From: Actinoplanes sp.
GTDB lineage: Bacteria > Actinomycetota > Actinomycetes > Mycobacteriales > Micromonosporaceae
Length of the DNA stretch: 64,000 bases
Direction of reading: 5' to 3'
Assembly: GCA_032160305.1 (NCBI GenBank)
Contig: JAVHVY010000376.1
Coordinates: forward strand, 6,143-70,142
Shown here: one piece after another, positions 20,742 to 32,012 of the stretch
How the letters are laid out: each line of letters starts with the position of its first letter
Position numbering within the stretch: position 1 is the stretch's first letter
Notes under the pieces: model-generated
The model's input: only the letters and a program-made list of their open reading frames with translations
Database searches by the model: none
Told to the model about the DNA's origin: nothing
Position numbers and translations under genes: made by a program

Positions 20742-22523
20742 TCACTGTGGGTGGATCAGGTGGCGGGTGAGCCAGTCGACAGCCTCGCGCAGATACTCCG
20801 CTCGCGACCAGCGGTGCAGCAGCTCGTGGCCCTCGTCGGGGAAGAGCAGGTACCGGTGCTCGGCGCCGCGGGCCAGCAGCGCCGCGACCACCTGCTCGGC
20901 CTCGATCACCGGGACGTTGCTGTCGTTCTCGCCGTGCACGACCAGTAGCGGCGCGCGCAGCCGGTCGATCCGGGTGATCGGCGACAACTCGCGCAGCAGC
21001 TCCGCGTCCAGCACCGGGTCGCCGTACTTGGAGACCGCGGCGGCCGCGATCCACGGCTCGGTGTGTTCGTAGAAGGTGGCGAAGTTGGCTATCCCGCAGA
21101 CGTCGATGCCGACCGCGAACAGCTCCGGGAAGGTGGTCAGGGCCGCCAGGGTGAGGTAACCGCCGTACGAGCGGCCCATCACGCCGACCCGGGCCGGATC
21201 GGCCACCCCGGTCGTGACCAGGTGGCGTACGCAGGAGCGGACGTCTTCGATGCCGTCGACGCGCAGCTTGCCGTTGTCCGCGTTCACGAAGGTGCGGCCG
21301 AATCCCGCCGAGCCGCGCACGTTCGGGGCGAAGACCGCGATGCCCCGGTCCACCAGCGACTGGAAGAGCGGGCCGTGCCCGGGACGTTCCTGTGCCTCGG
21401 GGCCGCCGTGGAACCAGACGACCGCCGGGTGCGGGCCGGGCGTGGCCGGGCGGAAGAGCCAGCCGGTCAGCTGCAGGCCGTCGTGGGCGCTGAAGCGCTC
21501 CAGGGTCGGCCGGACCGCGTTCGGGGCGGCCGGCTCGACCGAGACCGGGTGCAGGCCGGCGGCGTCGTACGTCCAGGTGCCGTGCGGCTGTCCGGGGCCC
21601 TCGGCGGTGAAGATGAGCGTGCTGCCGTCGGTGCTCCAGGCGATGCCGCTGACCACGCTGCCGGGCAGCGGCGTGACCGGCTCGCTGCCGCCGTGCACCA
21701 GGTCGAGGACGGTGAGCTCGGAGAGGCCGCCGCGGACGTTCCACAGCACGGCGACCCGGCGGCCGTCGGCGGTGAGCGCGAAGGACTCGACCTCGGCCGT
21801 CTCCGACGCGGCCAGCACCTCGGCGGCACCGTCCCGCACCCGGATCAGGACCGGATATTCACCGGCGTCGCTGCGGGCGTAGACGGAGCCGTCCGGGCCG
21901 AAGACCGCCGCTTCGCCGCTGGTGACCCACTCGTCGATGCCGGTGACGAGGTCGCGGACGACCACGTAGCGGCTGCCGCGCGGGCCGTGCCGCAGCAGGG
22001 CCCGGCGGCGGTCGACGCTGACGTCGAAGAGCGACAGCAACTCGCCCGCGGCGATCACCGTGCGTTCGGCGGTGACCGGGTCGATGACCAGGGTGGTGTG
22101 CAGATTCTCGGTGACGGCGAGCAGGGAGCGGCCGGGCAGCCAGCGGATGTTGTCGGCGGTGTCGGTGCCCATCCCGGCCACCTGGTGCAGTTCGGAGCCG
22201 TCCGGCCGGACCAGCCAGACCTCGTGCCGGGGCGCGCCGCCCGGGGCGAGCAGGCAGGCCAGCCAGCCGCCGCCGGTGGACCACTGGACCTGTGCGACGG
22301 GGTGCTCGCCGGTGTCGACCAGGAAGGCCAGCTCGCTGCCGACGGGCTGCACCCACACCGTGGGGGTGCCGCTGCGGTCCGAGACGTACGCCGCGTGCCG
22401 GCCGTCCGGCGACAACGCCGGCGACCAACTTCCGGACACTTCCGAAGGGAGGTCTCCCGAGCGCAGATTCGTCCAGCCAACGGGCAGAACGGTGACGTCG
22501 ACACGGTTGAGCTGACCGGTCAT
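20742..22523 (-). CDS. S9 family (prolyl oligopeptidase/acylaminoacyl) peptidase, cytoplasmic
   Basis: Beta-propeller N-terminus; HGGPE, NVRGSAGFG, nucleophile GRSYGG, HGENDSNVP, DEGH; no signal peptide. Confidence 0.92.
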   Translation of the reverse strand: MTGQLNRVDVTVLPVGWTNLRSGDLPSEVSGSWSPALSPDGRHAAYVSDRSGTPTVWVQPVGSELAFLVDTGEHPVAQVQWSTGGGWLACLLAPGGAPRHEVWLVRPDGSELHQVAGMGTDTADNIRWLPGRSLLAVTENLHTTLVIDPVTAERTVIAAGELLSLFDVSVDRRRALLRHGPRGSRYVVVRDLVTGIDEWVTSGEAAVFGPDGSVYARSDAGEYPVLIRVRDGAAEVLAASETAEVESFALTADGRRVAVLWNVRGGLSELTVLDLVHGGSEPVTPLPGSVVSGIAWSTDGSTLIFTAEGPGQPHGTWTYDAAGLHPVSVEPAAPNAVRPTLERFSAHDGLQLTGWLFRPATPGPHPAVVWFHGGPEAQERPGHGPLFQSLVDRGIAVFAPNVRGSAGFGRTFVNADNGKLRVDGIEDVRSCVRHLVTTGVADPARVGVMGRSYGGYLTLAALTTFPELFAVGIDVCGIANFATFYEHTEPWIAAAAVSKYGDPVLDAELLRELSPITRIDRLRAPLLVVHGENDSNVPVIEAEQVVAALLARGAEHRYLLFPDEGHELLHRWSRAEYLREAVDWLTRHLIHPQ

Positions 22524-22541
22524 ATCCGGATCCCTTCCCTT

Positions 22542-24314
22542 CTATATCTCCTTGTCCTGCAGCCACATTTCCAGCAGGGCCAGCTGCCAGAGCTGGTTCG
22601 CGCCGAGGGTGGTCCTGGGAGTATTCGGGTCGGTGAACAGGGCGTCAACGTACTCGGGCCGGAACAGCCCGCGGGCCCGTGCCGCCGGTGCGGTCAGCGC
22701 TTCCCGGACCATCTCCAGCATCGGTCCTTCGAGGTGCCGAATCCCGGGAACCGGGAAGTAACCCTTGGTCCGGTCGATCACCTCGTCGGGCACCACGCCG
22801 CGGGCGGCGTCCTTGAGCACGCCCTTGCCGCCCTGGGCCAGTTTCAGCTCCGGCGGGCAGGCCGCGGCCAGTTCGACCAGCTCGTGGTCGAGGAACGGCA
22901 CCCGCGCTTCCAGCCCCCAGGCCATGGTCATGTTGTCGACCCGTTTGACCGGGTCGTCGACGAGCATCACCTGCGAATCGAGCCGCAGGGCCGCGTCGAC
23001 CGCGGTGGTCGCGCCGGGCCGGGCGAAACTGGCCGCGACGAACTCGCGGCTGACGTCCGCGTCGATCAACCACTGCGGCGCGAGCTGGGCGGCCAGCTCC
23101 CGGTGCGGGCGATCGAAGAACTCATTGGCGTACGCGTCGACCGCCCCGCCCCGGGCCACGCCCGCCAGGGGCGGATACCAGCTGTACCCGGCCAGGATCT
23201 CATCGGCGCCCTGGCCGGACTGCACGACCGTGACCTGCTTCGCGACGTCCTCGCTGAGCAGGTTGAAGGCGATGCAGTCGTGGCTGACCATCGGCTCGCT
23301 CATCGCGGCGACCGTGCGGGCCACCGCGGGCAGGAACCGGTCCTTGCCGATCCGGATCTGGTGGTGTTCGGTGTCGAACTGCTTGGCGATCAGGTCCGAG
23401 TACGCGAACTCGTCGCCGCTCTCCCCGGCCGCGGCTTCGAAGCCGATGCTGAAGGTGCTCAGCCCGCGCTGCCCGTGCTCGGCCAGCAGCGCCACGATGT
23501 AGCTGGAGTCCAGTCCGCCGCTGAGCAGTACCCCGACCGGCACGTCGGCCACCATCCGGCGCTCGACCGCCGTACGCAGCTTCTCGTGCACCGCCTCGGC
23601 CCACTCGGCGCGGCTCATGGTCAGCGTCCGGGAGAACGACGCCGCCCAGTAGCCGCGCTCGGTGCTGCTTCCGTCCGCCTGGATGATCCGGACCGTGGCC
23701 GGCGGCAGCTTGCGCACCCCCTCGATGATCGTCCGTGGCGCCGGCACGACGGAGTGGAACGTCATGTACTGCTGCAGCGCGATCCTGTCCAGCGAGGTGT
23801 CCACGTCTCCCGCCGCCAGCAGCGCGGGCAGCGTCGAGGCGAAACGCAGCCGGCCCGGCCGCTCGGCCAGATACAGCGGCTTGATGCCGAGCCGGTCGCG
23901 GGCCAGCATCGTGGTCCCGCTGGCGTGCTCGGTGATCGCGAAGGCGAACATCCCGAGGAAGTGCCGCACACAGTCGGCGCCCCACCGGTGGTACGCCTTC
24001 AGGATCACCTCGGTGTCGGAGGTGGAGAAGAACGTGTAGCCGTGCCCGCGCAGCTCCTCGCGCAGCTGCTGATAGTTGTAGATGCAGCCGTTGAAGACCA
24101 GGGTCAGGCCGAGCTGCTCGTCGGTCATCGGCTGGGCGCCGGCGTCGGAGAGGTCGATGATCTTCAGCCGGCGGTGCCCGAAGGCCGCCCGGCCCCGCTG
24201 CCAGAGCCCTTCGCCGTCCGGACCGCGGGTGGCCAGGCACGGCAACATCCGGCGGACCGCTTCAGGGTCTGCCGGGCTGCCGTCGAACCTCAGTTCGCCG
24301 CCGATTCCACACAT
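22542..24314 (-). CDS. Asparagine synthase-like glutamine amidotransferase, N-acetylglutaminylglutamine amidotransferase type
   Basis: Ntn Cys (MCGIGGE), GHRRLKIIDL, FNGCIYNY, PP-loop SGGLDSS, GQGADE, LVDDPVKRVDNMTMAWGLEARVPFLD. Confidence 0.93.
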   Translation of the reverse strand: MCGIGGELRFDGSPADPEAVRRMLPCLATRGPDGEGLWQRGRAAFGHRRLKIIDLSDAGAQPMTDEQLGLTLVFNGCIYNYQQLREELRGHGYTFFSTSDTEVILKAYHRWGADCVRHFLGMFAFAITEHASGTTMLARDRLGIKPLYLAERPGRLRFASTLPALLAAGDVDTSLDRIALQQYMTFHSVVPAPRTIIEGVRKLPPATVRIIQADGSSTERGYWAASFSRTLTMSRAEWAEAVHEKLRTAVERRMVADVPVGVLLSGGLDSSYIVALLAEHGQRGLSTFSIGFEAAAGESGDEFAYSDLIAKQFDTEHHQIRIGKDRFLPAVARTVAAMSEPMVSHDCIAFNLLSEDVAKQVTVVQSGQGADEILAGYSWYPPLAGVARGGAVDAYANEFFDRPHRELAAQLAPQWLIDADVSREFVAASFARPGATTAVDAALRLDSQVMLVDDPVKRVDNMTMAWGLEARVPFLDHELVELAAACPPELKLAQGGKGVLKDAARGVVPDEVIDRTKGYFPVPGIRHLEGPMLEMVREALTAPAARARGLFRPEYVDALFTDPNTPRTTLGANQLWQLALLEMWLQDKEI

Positions 24315-24407
24315 CGTCCGACCTCCTTGGGGGCAGTCGGAAGCGCACCCAAGAAGGACCAGGCTCTGCGTCCGATATTTCGGTTCTGTATCTGAGTTGT
24401 GAACGTC

Positions 24408-27008
24408 TTAGCTCAGCAGCCAGGTGTCCTTCGAGCCGCCGCCGCGGGAGGAATTGACGATCATGCTCCCGGCCGGGGCGACCCGGGTCAGGGCGGCGGG
24501 CGCCACCACGGACTGCTTGCCGGTGAAGACGAAGGCGCGCAGGTCGACGTGTCGGGGCGCCAGCTGGTGGCCGTCGAAGACCGGGAGGGTCGACAGGTCG
24601 ACCACCTCCTGGGCGACCCAGCGATGCGGCGCGGCCTGGATCTGGCGCCGGAGCGCCTGCAGGTCCTCGCGCGAGGCGTACGGCCCGATCACGATCCGGT
24701 CGCCGCCGTAGCCGTCGACCGGTTTGCAGACCAGCTCCTCGAGCCGGCTGAGCACCTCGGAACGCTGCTCGCGGATCCCGCACAGGTAGGTCGGCACGTC
24801 CGCCAGCAGCGGCTTCTCACCCAGGTAGTACTCGATCAGCTGGTGGACGAAGGCGTACACGGCCTTGTCGTCGCCGATGCCGTTGCCCAGCGCGTTGGCC
24901 AGCACGATCGTGTCCGCGTGCAGGGCCGCGACCAGGCTCGGCCCGAGCGGCATCCCGTCGGCGCCGGGGGAGTGCACCAGGCTGTCCTCGCCCATCCGTA
25001 GGTAGATCACGTCCACCTTGTGCTTGCGGCCGTTCTCCAGCCGGACGACGATCGCGTCGTCGACCAGCAGATCGGTGCTGCGGACCAGCGGGACGCCCAT
25101 CTCCTCGGCGAGCATCCGGTGCTCGAACCAGGCCGAATCGTCCGGGCCCTGGCTGAGCACGACCACCTTCGGCTCGTCGTCGGCGGCCGGTCCGGCCGCC
25201 TCGAGCAGGGCCTGCCTGAGCAGCGCCGGGGTGTCTTCGATGCTGAGCAGGCCGGCCGGGCGGGGCAGCTCGGGCAGCACCGCCTCGGCGAGCCGGCGGT
25301 TCTGCATCGCGTAGCCGATGCCGGACGGCACCCGCAGGTTGTCCTCCAGCACGCACCAGTTGCCGGCTCCGTCGCGAACCAGGTCGACGCCGGCCACCTG
25401 GGTCCGGACCCCGCTGCGCCGGACCAGCGCGCCGCTGGGCCGCAACTCGGGCGAGCCGTCGATGACCCACTCGGGCACGACGCCGTCGGCGACGACGACG
25501 CGCTCGTTGTAGACGTCGTTGACGAAGGCGTCGAGCGCCTTCACCCGCTGGATCAGCCCGGATTCGAGCTGCTCGCGGTCGCGGGCCGGGACGATCCGGG
25601 GTACCAGGTCGAAGGGGAACAGCCGGACGGCCGCCTCCCCGGCCACGCTGAAGGTGATCCCGCGGGCGCGCTGTTCGTCGGCCTTGGCGTCCTCGCGGCG
25701 GCGCAGGCCCGCCGGTCCCAGAGCATTCAGGACATTCACGATCCCCGCGTACGCCGGGTTCACCTCGCCGTCCGGGAAGGCCTCGTCGCCGGCCGCCGCA
25801 TAGGGGGTGAGCCTGCCGGGGATCGTCTGCCCGTGCGGGCCGATGCCGGTCGCCCCGCCCCGGGTGTCGGCGACCACCAGGTCGACGATGTCCGAGATGC
25901 GGCCCCGGCGCTGCATCTCGCGGCGCTGCCGGGCGGCTGAGCTGCCCCGGCTGAGCTGCTGCACGGACAGGTCGAAGACCTGCTCCCAGTCGCCCAGTTC
26001 TTCGAGCTGCGGGCGCAGATCGCCGACCAGCCGTTCGACGGCGACCGCGGCCGGGATCGGCACGGGCGAGCGGGGCAGGTCGAGCAGGTCGCCCTCCAGG
26101 CCGGAACGGGCGGCGCGCCACATCGCCGCCCGGTGCAGCGGCGGCCGGGTCGCCCCGATCGGCTTGCCGGCCCGGTAATCCTGGCGGGCCCGCAGCACCA
26201 GGCCGCGGAACAGCCCGGCCAGCAGCACGACCGTGTCCGCGTCCGGGCTGGAGTCGGTGACCCGCAGCTCGACCGTGGGCAGGTGCGCGGAGGGGCGCAC
26301 GTCGAAGTAGATCATCTTCGGGTCGGTGATGGTGCCCGAGGCGATCAGGTCGGCGACCAGGGCGTCGTGGTCGGCGGCCGAGGTCACCTCGCCGCTGTCC
26401 CCGGCCGTGGGCCAGCGCATCCAGATCAGCGACCGGGTGCTGGCGTAGCCGGAGTCCTCACCCATCCAGTACGGCGAGCTGGCCGACAGGGCGAGCAGCA
26501 CCGGCAGCGCGGGCATCACCCGCTGGGCCACCGCGACGGCCTCGTCGGGGTCGGGGATGCCGACGTGCACCTGGGCGCCGCAGATCAACTGCTCGCGGAC
26601 CAGCAGCTGGTAGTCGTCCAGCATCCGGCGGTAGCGGGAGGTCGGGGTGACCGGCAGTGAGTCGAGGTCGACCAGTGGGACGGTGCCTGCGGCGACCAGC
26701 CCGAGCCCGAGCGATTCGGCGACACCGATGGCCCGCCGGCGCAGCTCGACGATCCCGTCCCGCAGGCCGTCCAGCGTCGCCGCGACCGGGGTGTTCGTCT
26801 CGACCACCGACCGGTGCAGCTCCGCCGAGTAATTGGCCTGGTCCAGCTGGTCGAGGATCTCGGGGGCGCGGGGTACGAGCTCCCGGGTGCGGAGGTCGAC
26901 GACGTGCAGTTCTTCCTCGACGCCGAGGGTCAGATCGGTGCTGAGATCGCTGCCTGCCTCCTCCGTTCCATCGCCCTCTGTGATCCTGAGTGACTCCGTC
27001 ATTACCAA
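24408..27008 (-). CDS. YbdK/GCS2 carboxylate-amine ligase fused to a circularly permuted type 2 ATP-grasp domain
   Basis: N-terminal LGVEEELHVVD, QLICGAQVHVG, DVRPSAHLPTVELR. C-terminal VLEDNLRVPSGIGY, NALGNG, KPVDGYGG, HVDLRAF, VNSSRGGGSKDTW. Confidence 0.92.
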   Translation of the reverse strand: MVMTESLRITEGDGTEEAGSDLSTDLTLGVEEELHVVDLRTRELVPRAPEILDQLDQANYSAELHRSVVETNTPVAATLDGLRDGIVELRRRAIGVAESLGLGLVAAGTVPLVDLDSLPVTPTSRYRRMLDDYQLLVREQLICGAQVHVGIPDPDEAVAVAQRVMPALPVLLALSASSPYWMGEDSGYASTRSLIWMRWPTAGDSGEVTSAADHDALVADLIASGTITDPKMIYFDVRPSAHLPTVELRVTDSSPDADTVVLLAGLFRGLVLRARQDYRAGKPIGATRPPLHRAAMWRAARSGLEGDLLDLPRSPVPIPAAVAVERLVGDLRPQLEELGDWEQVFDLSVQQLSRGSSAARQRREMQRRGRISDIVDLVVADTRGGATGIGPHGQTIPGRLTPYAAAGDEAFPDGEVNPAYAGIVNVLNALGPAGLRRREDAKADEQRARGITFSVAGEAAVRLFPFDLVPRIVPARDREQLESGLIQRVKALDAFVNDVYNERVVVADGVVPEWVIDGSPELRPSGALVRRSGVRTQVAGVDLVRDGAGNWCVLEDNLRVPSGIGYAMQNRRLAEAVLPELPRPAGLLSIEDTPALLRQALLEAAGPAADDEPKVVVLSQGPDDSAWFEHRMLAEEMGVPLVRSTDLLVDDAIVVRLENGRKHKVDVIYLRMGEDSLVHSPGADGMPLGPSLVAALHADTIVLANALGNGIGDDKAVYAFVHQLIEYYLGEKPLLADVPTYLCGIREQRSEVLSRLEELVCKPVDGYGGDRIVIGPYASREDLQALRRQIQAAPHRWVAQEVVDLSTLPVFDGHQLAPRHVDLRAFVFTGKQSVVAPAALTRVAPAGSMIVNSSRGGGSKDTWLLS

Positions 27009-27484
27009 GACCGCCTATGTCGTCGTCCAGTTGCCCGGAGCCTTGTCGGCTCGTGTGCCGAAACTGTCACGCGCCCATCTCGGCAATCGACCAAGCATGT
27101 CGATCGTGACACACGTTCCGATGAACATCAGTGCATGACGATTTCCGTCCGGAGCGCAACATTACGGATCGTGGTGGCCCGCTGCGCCGAAAGTGATGAA
27201 CCCTCCCAGTGTGCTCCGCCACGGCGTCGGCCGAACGGCCAGTCGGCGGGTGCCGCGACGCATCTATGCACGAACGGGCCAGCGAAAGGTGACGAAAAAG
27301 CCCGTAGACTGCAATTCGCCGGGTGCCGGACAGCGGTTCGGACGGGCGCCCCGCGACGGAGGGGTGGCGCGTGCCGAGCGTCGATCCGATGGTCCGGCCC
27401 GGCGAGGTCGTTCTCGTGGGGCCATCCGCGAGAAGATCGCATACTTCCGGTCGCTCGATCCGGTCGGTGCGGGAGAATAGCCCG

Positions 27485-27880
27485 GTGGCCAGACCCCGGA
27501 GCACGAACGCCTGCCCGTGCGGGCTCGGCCAGCCGTACGACGAGTGCTGCGGGCCGGCGCACCGCGGCCAGCCCCCGGTCAGCGCCGAGGCCCTGATGCG
27601 TTCCCGCTATGCCGCCTTCGCCCTCGACGACACGGCGTACGTGCTCAGCTCGTGGCATCCGGACACCCGGCCGGCGTCCGTCGAGTCCGATCCCGACCTG
27701 CGCTGGGTCGGTCTCGACCTGCTCGTCACCAGCGGCGGCGGGATGTTTGACACCGAGGGCGTCGTCGAGTTCGTGGCGCACTTCCGCGACGGCGGCCGGG
27801 CGGGCGAGATGCGCGAGGTGAGCCGCTTCGTGCGGCACGCCGGCCGTTGGGTCTACTGGGGCCCGCTGATCAGCGGTTAG
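27485..27880 (+). CDS. YchJ / SEC-C motif protein
   Basis: CPCG...[35 protein letters not shown]...WVY; GTG 27485 with RBS GGGAG. Confidence 0.88.
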
Positions 27881-27939
27881 CGCCCGGGTGTGCTGCAGTG
27901 GTCACCGGATCATCGTCGAACGTCAGGCAGGAGCGGTCA

Positions 27940-28797
27940 ATGTCGACCAGTCACCAGCGGCCGATCGAGGACGGCATCGTCCGCGACTTCAAGGTCAATC
28001 TCTCCTACGGCGGCTATCTGCACCTGGACGAGATCCTGTCGGCGCAGCACCCGGTCAGCGTGCCCGCGCACCACGACGAGCTGCTCTTCATCCTCCAGCA
28101 CCAGACCTCCGAACTGTGGCTCAAGCTCGTCCTGCACGAACTGCGCGCGGTGCAGCGCCAGCTCGCCGCCGACGAACTGCGGCCGGCGTTGAAGGGCCTG
28201 GCCCGGGTCAAACACATCCAGCGCACCCTGACCGAGCAGTGGTCGGTGCTGGCCACCCTGACCCCGAGCGAGTACGCCGAGTTCCGCAGCTTCCTCGGCA
28301 CGTCGTCGGGCTTCCAGTCGTACCAGTACCGGGCGGTCGAGTTCATGCTCGGCAACAAGGACGAACGGATGCTCTCGATCTTCGACGACGATCCGCGGGC
28401 CGGCGCGCTGCTGAGCGAGGCTCTGGAAGCGCCGAGCGTCTACGACGAGTTCCTGCGCTACCTCGCCCGGCACGGCCATCCGGTGCCCGTGGAGCTGCTG
28501 CAGCGCGACGTGCGGCTGCCGTATCAGTACAACGCCGACCTGGTTCCCGTCTTCCGGCACATCTACGAGAACGCGGAGCAGCACTGGGCGGCGTACGAGG
28601 CGTGTGAGGAACTGGTCGACCTGGAGGAGAACTTCCAGTTGTGGCGGTTCCGGCACCTCAAGACCGTGGAGCGGACCATCGGCGTACGGCGGGGGACCGG
28701 CGGATCGAGCGGCGTCGCCTTCCTGCGCGCGGCCCTGGACCTGACCTTCTTCCCCGAGCTGTACGCCGTCCGCACCGAGATCGGAGTGCCCCGTTGA
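27940..28797 (+). CDS. kynA: Tryptophan 2,3-dioxygenase
   Basis: [47 protein letters not shown]...GTGGSSG. Confidence 0.95.
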
Positions 28798-30023
28798 CCG
28801 ACGACCTGCTCGACCGGGCCCGGGCCCTGGACGCGGCCGACCCGCTCGCCGGGTACCGGGAGCAGTTCATCACCCCGCCCGACTTCGACGTGATCTCCTA
28901 CCTGGACGGTAATTCCCTCGGCCGCCCGCTGGAGGCGACCGCCCGGCTGCTCGACGACTTCGTCCGCCGCCAGTGGGCGGGCCGGCTGATCCGCGGCTGG
29001 ACGGACGGCTGGATGCAGTGGCCGCTGCGGCTCGGCGACCGGCTCGGCGAGGTGGCGCTGGGCGCCGCCCCGGGCCAGGTCGTGGTGGCCGACTCGACCA
29101 CGGTGCTGCTCTACAAGATGGCCCGGGCGGCCGTCGACGCGCGGCCCGGCCGGCGCAGGATCGTGCTCGACACCGACAACTTCCCGACCGACCGCTATAT
29201 CATCGAGGCGATCGCGGCCGAGCGCGGGCTGAGCCTGGTCTGGATCGAGACCGACCCGGCCGCCGGGATCCGGCCCGGCCAGGTCGCCGACGCGGTCGGC
29301 GAGGACACCGCGCTGGTGCTCTTCAGCCAGGTGGCGTACCGGTCGGGGTGGCTGGCGGACGCGCCGGAGATCACCCGGATCGCGCACGCCGCCGGGGCGC
29401 TGATGCTGTGGGACCTGAGCCATTCGGTCGGCTCGGTGCCGCTGGCGCTGGACGACTGGGGCGTCGACATCGCGGTGGGCTGCACGTACAAATACCTCAA
29501 CGGCGGCCCCGGCGCGCCGGCCTTCGCCTATCTGCGCGCCGCGCTGCAGTCCGAGGTGCGTCAGCCGATCTGGGGCTGGATGGGGCACCGGGCCTCGTTC
29601 GAGATGGGCCCGGGCCACGAGCCGGCGCCGGGGGTCCGGGCGCTACTCAGCGGCACCCCGCCGATCCTCGCGATGGTCCCGCTGGAGGCCAACCTGGACA
29701 TGCTCGCGGCCGCCGGGATCGGCGCGGTCCGGGCCAAATCCGAGAAGCTGACCGGGTACGCCCTGGAGCTGGCCGACCGCTGGCTGGCGCCACTCGGCGT
29801 GCAGGTGGCCGGCCCCCGCGAGCCGTACCGCCGGGGCGGGCACATCACGCTGCGCCGCCCCGGCTTCGAGCAGCTCCTCGAACCGTTGTGGCAGCGGGGC
29901 GTGTTCCCCGACTACCGCCGTCCGGACGGGCTGCGGATCGGGCCGGCCCCGCTGAGCACCAGTTTCACCGAGCTGCACCGCGGCCTCGCCACCCTGCGCG
30001 ACCTGCTGGCGGAGCATCGGTGA
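28794..30023 (+). CDS. kynU: Kynureninase (PLP-dependent)
   Basis: [36 protein letters not shown]; TTG start overlaps the kynA stop. Confidence 0.93.
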
Positions 30024-31009
30024 TCGTCGCCGACAGCCTGTGGTGGGGTGGCCGGCTGCACACCGGCGTGGCCCTGGCCGGCCGCCGGATCGTGCCGGTG
30101 GCCGAGATCCCGCCCGATACGCCGGTCCGGCGGCTGCCCGGGACGGTGCTGCCCGGGCTGGTCGACGCCCACGTGCACTCCGCGCTGGTCGCGCTGGGCA
30201 CGCTGCGGGCCGCCGGGATCGCGGCGGTCTGGGATCTGGGCGGGGCGCCGGCCCGGGTGCGCGCCCTGAGCAAGCGCCCGGACCTGCCCCGGATGCGCTA
30301 CGCGGGTCCGTTCCTGATCGCGCCCGGCGGCTATCCGAGCGACCGCTCCTGGGCCCCGGCCGGGAGCTGCCGGGAGATCCACTCGGCCGCGGACGCCGCC
30401 GACGCCGTCGGGGAGGCGCACGCGGCCGGCGCGACGCTCATCAAGGCGACCGCCCACGCGGGCGGCCCGCTGCTGCCGGCGCGGACCCTGGCCGCCCTGG
30501 TCGGGGCGGCGCACGCGGGTGGGCTGCCGGTAGTCGTGCACGCTGAAGGGCCCGGCACCGTCGCGGCCGCCTACGAGGCGGGCGCCGACCTGCTGGCGCA
30601 CACCCCGTGGACCGAGGTGGCCGACGCGGCCCTGGTCCGGGACTGTGCCGCGCGGATGACCTGGATCAGCACCCTCGACATCCACGGGTGGGGGTCGCCG
30701 ACCCCGGCCCGGGCCACCGCGATCGGCAACCTGCGGTGTTTCCGGGAGCATGGCGGAGCGGTCCGTTACGGCACCGACCTGGGTAACGGCCCGTTGCCGC
30801 CGGGCGTCAACGCCCGGGAGATCCGGGCGCTGCTGGAGGCGGGCCTGAGCCCGGCGGAGATCATCGCGGCGATGACCGAGGACGATCAGGACGAGCTGGG
30901 CTGGATTCCGGGTGGGCTGGGCGACGATCCGGCGACCTTCGCCGACGAGCTGGCCACCGCCCGGGTGCTCGGGCCGCCGGTCGGCCCCGGGTGTGAGCTC
31001 AAAAGCTGA
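30020..31009 (+). CDS. Metal-dependent amidohydrolase (TIM barrel)
   Basis: PGLVDAHVH, IKAT, VVVHAEG, LAHTP, YGTDLGN give a full metal-ligand set; GTGA overlap with the kynU stop. Confidence 0.85.
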   Translation: MIVADSLWWGGRLHTGVALAGRRIVPVAEIPPDTPVRRLPGTVLPGLVDAHVHSALVALGTLRAAGIAAVWDLGGAPARVRALSKRPDLPRMRYAGPFLIAPGGYPSDRSWAPAGSCREIHSAADAADAVGEAHAAGATLIKATAHAGGPLLPARTLAALVGAAHAGGLPVVVHAEGPGTVAAAYEAGADLLAHTPWTEVADAALVRDCAARMTWISTLDIHGWGSPTPARATAIGNLRCFREHGGAVRYGTDLGNGPLPPGVNAREIRALLEAGLSPAEIIAAMTEDDQDELGWIPGGLGDDPATFADELATARVLGPPVGPGCELKS

Positions 31010-32012
31010 CGGTCTCCCCGGTCGTCGCGCTGACCCGGGCCGCGTCCAGCACGTCCATCGTCCGGACCGCGTCCCACGGGTCGACGGGGACGGGCCCCGC
31101 GCCGCTGATCGCCGCCGCGAAGGCCGGGTAGAACGTGTCCCACCGGCCGCGCTCGCTGCGTACCGGGGCGAGCGTCGCGCCCCGGTAGAGCCGGCCCCAG
31201 GCGTGCTCGGGCTCGGCGCCCCAGCGCTCGCCCAGGTCCGCCGGCGACCGGCCCGCCTTCAGGGCCGCCTCCTGACCGTCCAACCCGTCCACGATGAACG
31301 AGCCGGTGGTGCCGGTCACCCGCAGCCGCGGGCCCGGCGCGGCCTGCCGCCAGCTGCCGGTCAGGTGCGACTCCACGCCGTTCAGGTGGTGCAACGCCAC
31401 GAAGAACTCGTCCTCGAGCTCAGTGCCGCCGTGCAACTCCGCGTAGAGCCGGTCGGCCGGGCCGAAGAGCAGCATGGCCTGGTCCACCAGGTGCGAGCCG
31501 AAGTCGAGCAGGGTCCCGCCGCCGGAGCCGGGCATCTGCCGGGCCGGGTCCCAGCGTTCGAGCCGGGACTCGAACCGCCGGACCTCGCCCAGCGTGCCCG
31601 CGCCGATCAGCCGGCGGACGGTGAGCAGGTCCGAATCCCAGCGGCGGTTCTGGTAGACGGTCAACAGCACGCCCGCCTCGCCGGCCAGCGTGACGACCTC
31701 CCGGGCCGCCTCAGCGTCCAGGGCGAACGGCTTGTCCACGACCACCGCCAGGCCCAGCGCGATCGCCTCGCGGGCCAGCTCGGCATGCGTCGCCGCCGGA
31801 GTCGTCACGGTGACACCCTGCACGCCCGCGGCGGCCAGCTCGGCCAGCGAGTCGAACGCGGCCACCCCGGGATGATCTTTCTTCAGAACGGCCCGGCGCT
31901 CCGCCGACCGGGTCACCACCCCGACGAATTCCACGTCGGGTGCCGACGCGATCAACGGGGCGTGAAAGATCCGCCCGCCCGAGCCGTAACCGACCACTCC
32001 CCAGCGCACCAT
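30999..32012 (-). CDS. Gfo/Idh/MocA family oxidoreductase
   Basis: GVVGYGSGG, VVVDKPF, YQNRRWD, LLDFGSHLVD. Confidence 0.9.
   Translation of the reverse strand: MVRWGVVGYGSGGRIFHAPLIASAPDVEFVGVVTRSAERRAVLKKDHPGVAAFDSLAELAAAGVQGVTVTTPAATHAELAREAIALGLAVVVDKPFALDAEAAREVVTLAGEAGVLLTVYQNRRWDSDLLTVRRLIGAGTLGEVRRFESRLERWDPARQMPGSGGGTLLDFGSHLVDQAMLLFGPADRLYAELHGGTELEDEFFVALHHLNGVESHLTGSWRQAAPGPRLRVTGTTGSFIVDGLDGQEAALKAGRSPADLGERWGAEPEHAWGRLYRGATLAPVRSERGRWDTFYPAFAAAISGAGPVPVDPWDAVRTMDVLDAARVSATTGETVSF

Follow-up and report, generated by a model that had tools for sequence, protein, structure and literature searches.

A TIM-barrel amidohydrolase encoded with kynA and kynU is a candidate kynurenine formamidase in Actinoplanes and other Actinomycetes

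A three-gene operon for tryptophan catabolism

At positions 27940–31009 of the Actinoplanes sp. DNA analysed here (the window, a stretch of 64,000 nucleotides from contig JAVHVY010000376.1 of assembly GCA_032160305.1), three genes are chained on the forward strand: (i) kynA (27940..28797), encoding a tryptophan 2,3-dioxygenase (TDO) of 285 amino acids (aa), (ii) kynU (28794..30023), encoding a kynureninase of 409 aa, and (iii) a gene (30020..31009) encoding an amidohydrolase-superfamily protein of 329 aa, P0003, which is the candidate formamidase of this report. The window has a GC content of 70–75%, and the nearest relatives of its proteins are those of Actinoplanes.

The three reading frames are tightly joined. 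The kynA gene starts at an ATG (27940), with GGAGCGG ahead of it as ribosome site, and ends at a TGA (28795–28797). The TTG start of kynU (28794) lies inside this stop, forming a 4-bp TTGA overlap (28794–28797), and the GTG start of the amidohydrolase gene (30020) lies inside the TGA stop of kynU (30021–30023), forming a 4-bp GTGA overlap (30020–30023). An earlier note on this DNA had described the chain through these two overlaps, and the start and stop coordinates bear it out. The alignment of amidohydrolase homologues begins at residue 2, which supports the GTG start, and all three frames look coding because their third-position GC is 0.93–0.96 (0.93 in kynA). A scan of 27000–31400 found no promoter or terminator, although such a scan says little for an actinomycete of 71% GC.

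The first two products are readily recognised. KynA matches PF03301 at 216.5 bits and TIGR03036 at 389.6 bits, 1 bit under the cut-off of 390.7, and KynU exceeds the cut-off of TIGR01814 (253.9 against 246.4 bits) and matches PF22580 (KYNU_C) and PF00266. The locus has the make-up of a tryptophan-to-anthranilate operon, in which TDO and kynureninase are chained with a hydrolase by 4-bp overlaps at both junctions. KynA would convert L-tryptophan to N-formyl-L-kynurenine by opening the indole ring, the amidohydrolase would remove the formyl group with water activated at two metal ions bound by H51/H53, carboxylated K142, H174, H194 and D253, and KynU would cleave the resulting L-kynurenine to anthranilate and L-alanine. 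Since the operon consists of two known enzymes and this hydrolase, P0003 would fill the hole in the pathway. Judged purely from its genomic context, from which we infer both substrate and reaction, P0003 is probably a non-orthologous N-formylkynurenine formamidase (arylformamidase, EC 3.5.1.9).

Metal site and fold of the amidohydrolase

P0003 was aligned with 32 representatives from a library of 1.8 billion proteins. Residues D49, H51, H53, D72, K142, H174, H194, D253 and E267 are invariant or nearly so, and the GGYP motif (103–106) and W111 are also conserved. The predicted ligand set is that of a binuclear amidohydrolase with a carboxylated lysine (HxH, Lys, His, His, Asp), the ligands lying at the C-terminal ends of barrel strands 1, 4, 5, 6 and 8. 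All six (H51, H53, K142, H174, H194 and D253) are conserved in 90% or more of the sequences both in the clade linked to the kyn genes and in a paralogous clade, both described below.

The AlphaFold2 model of P0003 has a predicted local distance difference test score (pLDDT) of 94.7 and a predicted template modelling score (pTM) of 0.92. In a Foldseek search of the Protein Data Bank (PDB) it has at least 500 matches with E-values no higher than 0.001, and every one of the first 50 listed is an amidohydrolase. Model, Foldseek matches and PF01979 (28.6 bits, just above the cut-off of 25) agree on a (beta/alpha)8 barrel with a small composite beta-sandwich. P0003 matches neither of the KynB models, PF04199 and TIGR03035, nor any alpha/beta-hydrolase family of Pfam, its fold being a TIM barrel.

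The nearest solved relatives, on which the Foldseek search and a profile search of the PDB agree, belong to cog1228: the Xaa-Pro dipeptidase 2qs8, the Arg/Lys carboxypeptidase Cc2672 (3mtw), the Sgx9260 prolidases (3feq and 3n2c), the ochratoxin amidohydrolase ADH3 (8ihq and 8j85) and ochratoxinase (4c5z). They have the fold and the metal-ligand pattern in common with P0003, with template modelling scores of ~0.75 by query and Foldseek E-values of 1e-16 to 1e-18; sequence identity is 17–22% and profile E-values are 1e-23 to 1e-29. P0003 differs from them in length (329 aa against ~400–435 aa) and in having conserved loops of its own, 103-GGYP-106 with W111 and 217-STLDIHGWG-225. The best NCBIfam match is the Xaa-Pro dipeptidase equivalog NF051886, at 41.4 bits over residues 90–217 only and with a cut-off of 500. 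Because the fold and profile matches are remote and this score lies below its cut-off, P0003 is best described as a short, divergent neighbour of cog1228 outside every characterised equivalog. The ESM Atlas clusters and the source annotations give only generic ‘amidohydrolase’ labels.

Known cog1228 members cleave an amide beside a free alpha-carboxylate, and none is linked to kyn genes. Their chemistry suggests another role for P0003, that of hydrolysing N-acyl- or peptidyl-tryptophan, or a related amide, and so feeding free tryptophan to KynA rather than deformylating its product. The best matches in sequence and fold, from 2qs8, 3mtw and 3feq/3n2c to the ochratoxin amidohydrolases, all release a C-terminal amino acid, and the best NCBIfam model is a dipeptidase. 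Such a role is nevertheless unlikely, the matches being as remote as their identities and the 41 bits against a 500-bit cut-off indicate. The kyn-linked clade moreover has an active-site loop of its own: 217-STLDIHGWG-225 is found in this clade only and is absent from the paralogues, and L56, W215, F241, G246 and L259 are further fixed differences between the two clades. This is the pattern that a substrate change would be expected to give, and the segment D220-I-H-G-W-G225 may contribute to specificity.

Linkage to kynA and kynU

Protein-similarity searching of a set with a single genome for each GTDB species gave 67 related loci, in which kynA and kynU were placed by tblastn. In the case of the Actinoplanes group, the order is kynA–kynU–amidohydrolase in 15 of 15 loci. 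Some 45 loci of Microbacteriaceae (including Cryobacterium, Leifsonia, Agromyces and Rathayibacter) and Promicromonosporaceae (including Isoptericola and Promicromonospora) have the order kynA–amidohydrolase–kynU, which follows the sequence of the pathway steps and puts the gene in the classical position of kynB. The loci that lack full linkage are mostly contigs cut beside the amidohydrolase gene. A maximum-likelihood tree built from 88 sequences groups the kyn-linked ones in a single clade (70 rows) with a support of 98 in the Shimodaira–Hasegawa-like approximate likelihood ratio test (SH-aLRT), and in 64 of these 70 both kynA and kynU lie within 2.5 kb of the amidohydrolase gene.

An enzyme that feeds tryptophan into the pathway would not be expected to stay joined to kynA and kynU in ~64 genomes, nor to lie between them. 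The deformylation step would then also stay vacant in every one of these genomes, as a KynB equivalog is absent from them all. Both points speak against such a feeding role.

A profile of the amidohydrolase family was also run against a sample of 251 Actinomycetes genomes; the tallies include the unpublished genomes G006, G035, G029 and G042, and no conclusion hangs on these alone. Eight genomes have a match of at least 334 bits, and all eight matches abut a TDO gene. Short metagenome contigs carry the amidohydrolase gene directly after kynA. A basal member of the kyn-linked clade, from Nocardia sp. NBC_00881 (L023:22-7017), lies in an operon with no kynureninase, in which the TDO-like and amidohydrolase genes overlap by 8 bp; the order is GNAT-like protein, class-III aminotransferase, amidase-signature enzyme, class-I/II aminotransferase, TDO-like protein and amidohydrolase. 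The operon may encode a route by which tryptophan is converted, via kynurenine, into a transaminated compound (kynurenate, for example). The kynA–amidohydrolase–kynU order, the contigs with kynA and the amidohydrolase, and the Nocardia overlap together indicate that the amidohydrolase tracks the dioxygenase and not the kynureninase.

These gene orders bear on a second possibility, which the earlier note had kept beside the formamidase: that kynureninase acts first, on N-formylkynurenine, and that the amidohydrolase then deformylates N-formylanthranilate. In the window the amidohydrolase gene does come after kynU and not after kynA. In favour of the same scheme, kynureninases are known to take N-formylkynurenine as a poor substrate. 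The gene lies between kynA and kynU, however, in the ~45 genomes of Microbacteriaceae and Promicromonosporaceae, and in Nocardia it overlaps the TDO gene of an operon that lacks kynureninase. Streptomyces, moreover, has the same gene order as the window, and a report cited in PMC4243253 (Zummo 2012) makes the hydrolase there a kynurenine formamidase. N-formylanthranilate is accordingly a very improbable substrate, and N-formylkynurenine is the one that the gene orders favour.

Of the 51 Micromonosporaceae genomes sampled (one per genus), 43 have kynureninase, mostly alone in a conserved context without other kyn genes. The amidohydrolase occurs only in the genome of the window, in one congener (L150, kynA–kynU–amidohydrolase) and in one further genus. 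The sortase (e8), HNH, DUF5130 and MscS genes beside the stand-alone kynU were considered for a role in the pathway and rejected as local synteny only. In three genera of the family an amidase-signature gene (PF01425, ~480–500 aa) is divergent from the stand-alone kynU (L139:3463-4956, L142:6282-7787 and L143:6226-7671).

Other hydrolases in the same position

The kynurenine formamidase reaction is a textbook example of catalysis by unrelated folds: many bacteria use the cyclase-like KynB, and eukaryotes and Streptomyces use alpha/beta hydrolases. When the neighbours of TDO were typed in 40 Actinomycetes loci, two Streptomyces genomes (one of them G091, identified as S. achromogenes through an exact protein match) were seen to have kynA–kynU followed by an alpha/beta hydrolase (BD-FAE/Abhydrolase_3), named ‘alpha/beta hydrolase’ or ‘lipase/esterase’ at source. 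A Streptomyces-type kynA–kynU–alpha/beta hydrolase operon is also present in one genus of Micromonosporaceae (G263, locus L146). Within the single genus g81, one genome (G097) has kynA–amidohydrolase–kynU and another (G202) has kynA followed by an alpha/beta hydrolase. Read from gene order and families, the amidohydrolase and the alpha/beta hydrolase in one slot present the pattern of non-orthologous displacement at one step of a pathway.

The Streptomyces order fits the SCO3646–SCO3645–SCO3644 trio of S. coelicolor, of which SCO3644 was reported as a formamidase (Zummo et al. 2012, as cited in PMC4243253 and bioRxiv 10.1101/2020.07.31.230920). By its position, its ‘lipase/esterase’ naming and these citations of Zummo 2012, the Streptomyces slot hydrolase fits the SCO3644 type. 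The alpha/beta-hydrolase formamidases (mammalian AFMID, yeast Bna7 and SCO3644) resemble P0003 in the slot that the Streptomyces and G263 hydrolases fill. They differ in being serine hydrolases of another fold that use no metal, and P0003, a TIM barrel, lacks their alpha/beta-hydrolase fold with its Ser-His-Asp triad.

KynB is the bacterial kynurenine formamidase with a cyclase-like fold (PF04199, TIGR03035), of which structures are reported in PMC4243253. P0003 would share with it the reaction and a binuclear metal centre that activates water, and both are encoded with kynA and kynU. The difference lies in the fold, a cyclase in KynB and in P0003 a TIM barrel with HxH/Lys/His/His/Asp ligands.

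In one Actinomycetes family (f4), an open reading frame (ORF) without a match in Pfam or NCBIfam follows kynA–kynU (L084:2458-3390 and L090:4291-5628); its core of 150 aa is 66–72% conserved. A related ORF lies near kynA in L089:2266-3408 and L094:8499-9377, where no kynU was found beside kynA. The f4 ORF could be one more protein type in the formamidase slot, or its frame may have been called wrongly.

The search for another formamidase

The KynB equivalog model (TIGR03035, cut-off 223) finds no member in any of the 251 Actinomycetes genomes, that of the window included. The best score is 146 bits, G042 and G006 being among the best of the sub-threshold matches, and none of the weaker cyclase matches in the 251 genomes lies beside TDO. 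TDO itself is present in 138 of the 251, with scores that form two groups at ~380 bits and ~220 bits, so that for most of the class the deformylation step formally has no assigned enzyme.

In the 64-kb window there is no cyclase-family gene (PF04199), and three kyn-linked alpha/beta hydrolases searched against it at E 1e-4 have no match there, which confirms the earlier observation that the window encodes neither a cyclase-type KynB nor an alpha/beta-hydrolase formamidase. A weak Abhydrolase_3 signal at ~20.8–21.3 kb belongs to a protein of the S9 prolyl-oligopeptidase family. In the whole genome (~91% complete, in 505 contigs) the Streptomyces-type alpha/beta hydrolase has no match at 1e-5, and the only match to PF04199 is on another contig. 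No recognised formamidase was thus found in this genome, but a generic hydrolase elsewhere may deformylate N-formylkynurenine. The proposal that a non-orthologous formamidase occupies the slot of kynB is well backed, at the level of genes, by the two gene orders, the exchange of hydrolases in Streptomyces and G263, and the lack of KynB in all 251 genomes.

Several points weigh against P0003 in this role. Two unlinked proteins of the same genome, the cyclase-family protein (PF04199, 117 bits), whose gene is flanked by those for a MerR regulator and an InhA-like protease, and an Abhydrolase_3 esterase (217 bits), could deformylate N-formylkynurenine. N-formylkynurenine is also open to attack by unspecific esterases and hydrolyses slowly even on its own, so that a dedicated enzyme is not strictly required. 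The closest characterised relatives of P0003 cleave N-acyl-amino-acid or peptide bonds beside a free carboxylate, not aryl formamides. The argument is one of context, and the enzyme stands as a candidate. Lastly, one operon with the amidohydrolase (L076, genome G105) also has an Abhydrolase_3/BD-FAE hydrolase of 356 aa (L076:5894-6964) directly upstream of kynA; the hydrolase gene and a TetR gene are followed there by kynA–amidohydrolase–kynU–PaaX, and in this operon the alpha/beta hydrolase could be the formamidase.

It follows from L076 that a strict anticorrelation of the amidohydrolase with alpha/beta-hydrolase formamidases has to be rejected as an absolute rule. A third possibility is that the formamidase step is carried out elsewhere, by the unlinked cyclase-family protein, by an unlinked alpha/beta esterase or without an enzyme, and that P0003 has another part in tryptophan catabolism, possibly the detoxification of a side product or the hydrolysis of another kynurenine-derived amide. 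The two proteins on other contigs and the L076 operon with both hydrolase types speak for it, as do paralogues of P0003 that have the same ligands and no kyn genes nearby, so that the family at large is found outside the kyn operon too. We consider this possibility doubtful. The cyclase-family protein, although the best KynB match of its genome, reaches only 21.5 bits against the cut-off of 223 and lies beside unrelated genes, and the Abhydrolase_3 esterase has only a remote likeness to the kyn-linked alpha/beta hydrolases. Both hydrolase types occur together in 1 of ~68 loci only, that of L076. The assignment of the deformylation step to P0003 therefore remains the favoured one.

A paralogous clade at the dnaE–hisD region

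In the 88-sequence tree the sister clade (15 rows, SH-aLRT 100) has no kyn genes nearby. Its members lie in a conserved housekeeping region, between the gene for the DNA polymerase III alpha subunit (dnaE) and that for histidinol dehydrogenase (hisD); the identity of the large neighbour as Mfd was ruled out, its Pfam match being to DNA polymerase III alpha. These paralogues (L110-L124, for example L110:4971-6047 and L112:4914-6029) are 34–41% identical to P0003, have the same metal ligands and occur in many Actinomycetes families. They correspond to a second tier of matches to the family profile, at 190–265 bits in ~35 of the 251 genomes (G006 and G035 among them), which are not near TDO and lie in the dnaE–hisD region. 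An unlinked TDO is present in 30 of the 35 genomes with a dnaE-locus paralogue, against 138 of 251 overall, in counts that ignore phylogeny, and the paralogue may be a second, unlinked formamidase.

A representative 44% identical to P0003 (P0158) adjoins hydantoinase A/B genes. With this protein and the sister clade both outside a kyn context, a kyn linkage of the whole amidohydrolase family is rejected, and the functional claim is confined to the kyn-linked clade.

A possible third fold for one reaction

Full-text literature searches, curated models, source annotations and Atlas cluster names yielded no amidohydrolase-superfamily kynurenine formamidase. The reaction and the superfamily are both already known; what would be new is the pairing of the two. 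On balance, we favour the view that P0003 represents a structurally unrelated class of formamidase that is standard in Microbacteriaceae, Promicromonosporaceae and the Actinoplanes group, and whose dnaE-locus paralogues might serve many more Actinomycetes.

If this is true, a third fold would close the pathway hole for whole actinobacterial families, and the annotation ‘amidohydrolase family protein’ would be corrected on hundreds of genes. The cog1228 amidohydrolases would gain a new activity, the deformylation of an aryl formamide, and a metal-dependent alternative would become available for engineering of the kynurenine/anthranilate pathway.

Surroundings of the operon and a further cluster

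The operon is bounded on its 3' side by a convergent gene for a GFO/IDH/MocA oxidoreductase (30999..32012, reverse strand; PF01408, PF22725, PF02894), the end of which overlaps the amidohydrolase stop by 11 bp and marks the 3' end of the operon. On the 5' side, 59 bp upstream of kynA, lies a gene for a YchJ/SEC-C-motif protein (27323..27880, forward strand; PF17775, PF02810). It has the same position in 12 of 15 Actinoplanes-group loci (L003-L017), but no counterpart was found beside the Microbacteriaceae operons; it is therefore taken as genus-level synteny only and not as part of the pathway.

Further upstream, on the reverse strand (20742-27008), the window encodes a fused protein of 866 aa with a GCS2 glutamate-cysteine-ligase-like part and a circularly permuted ATP-grasp part, an asparagine synthase of 590 aa and a 593-aa S9 peptidase that carries PD40 repeats. 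This set could be a peptide-modification or amide-ligase cluster.

A cluster of another kind, in L075:5902-9589 and L081:1137-4866 (family f47) and in L098:5780-9547 (G237), encodes, in this order, an Amidohydro_2 protein (ACMSD-like), a divergent kynureninase (34–37% identical) and a flavin adenine dinucleotide (FAD) monooxygenase (KMO-like), and resembles a branch through 3-hydroxykynurenine. It is divergent from kynA in both f47 loci; in the G237 locus kynA was not found.

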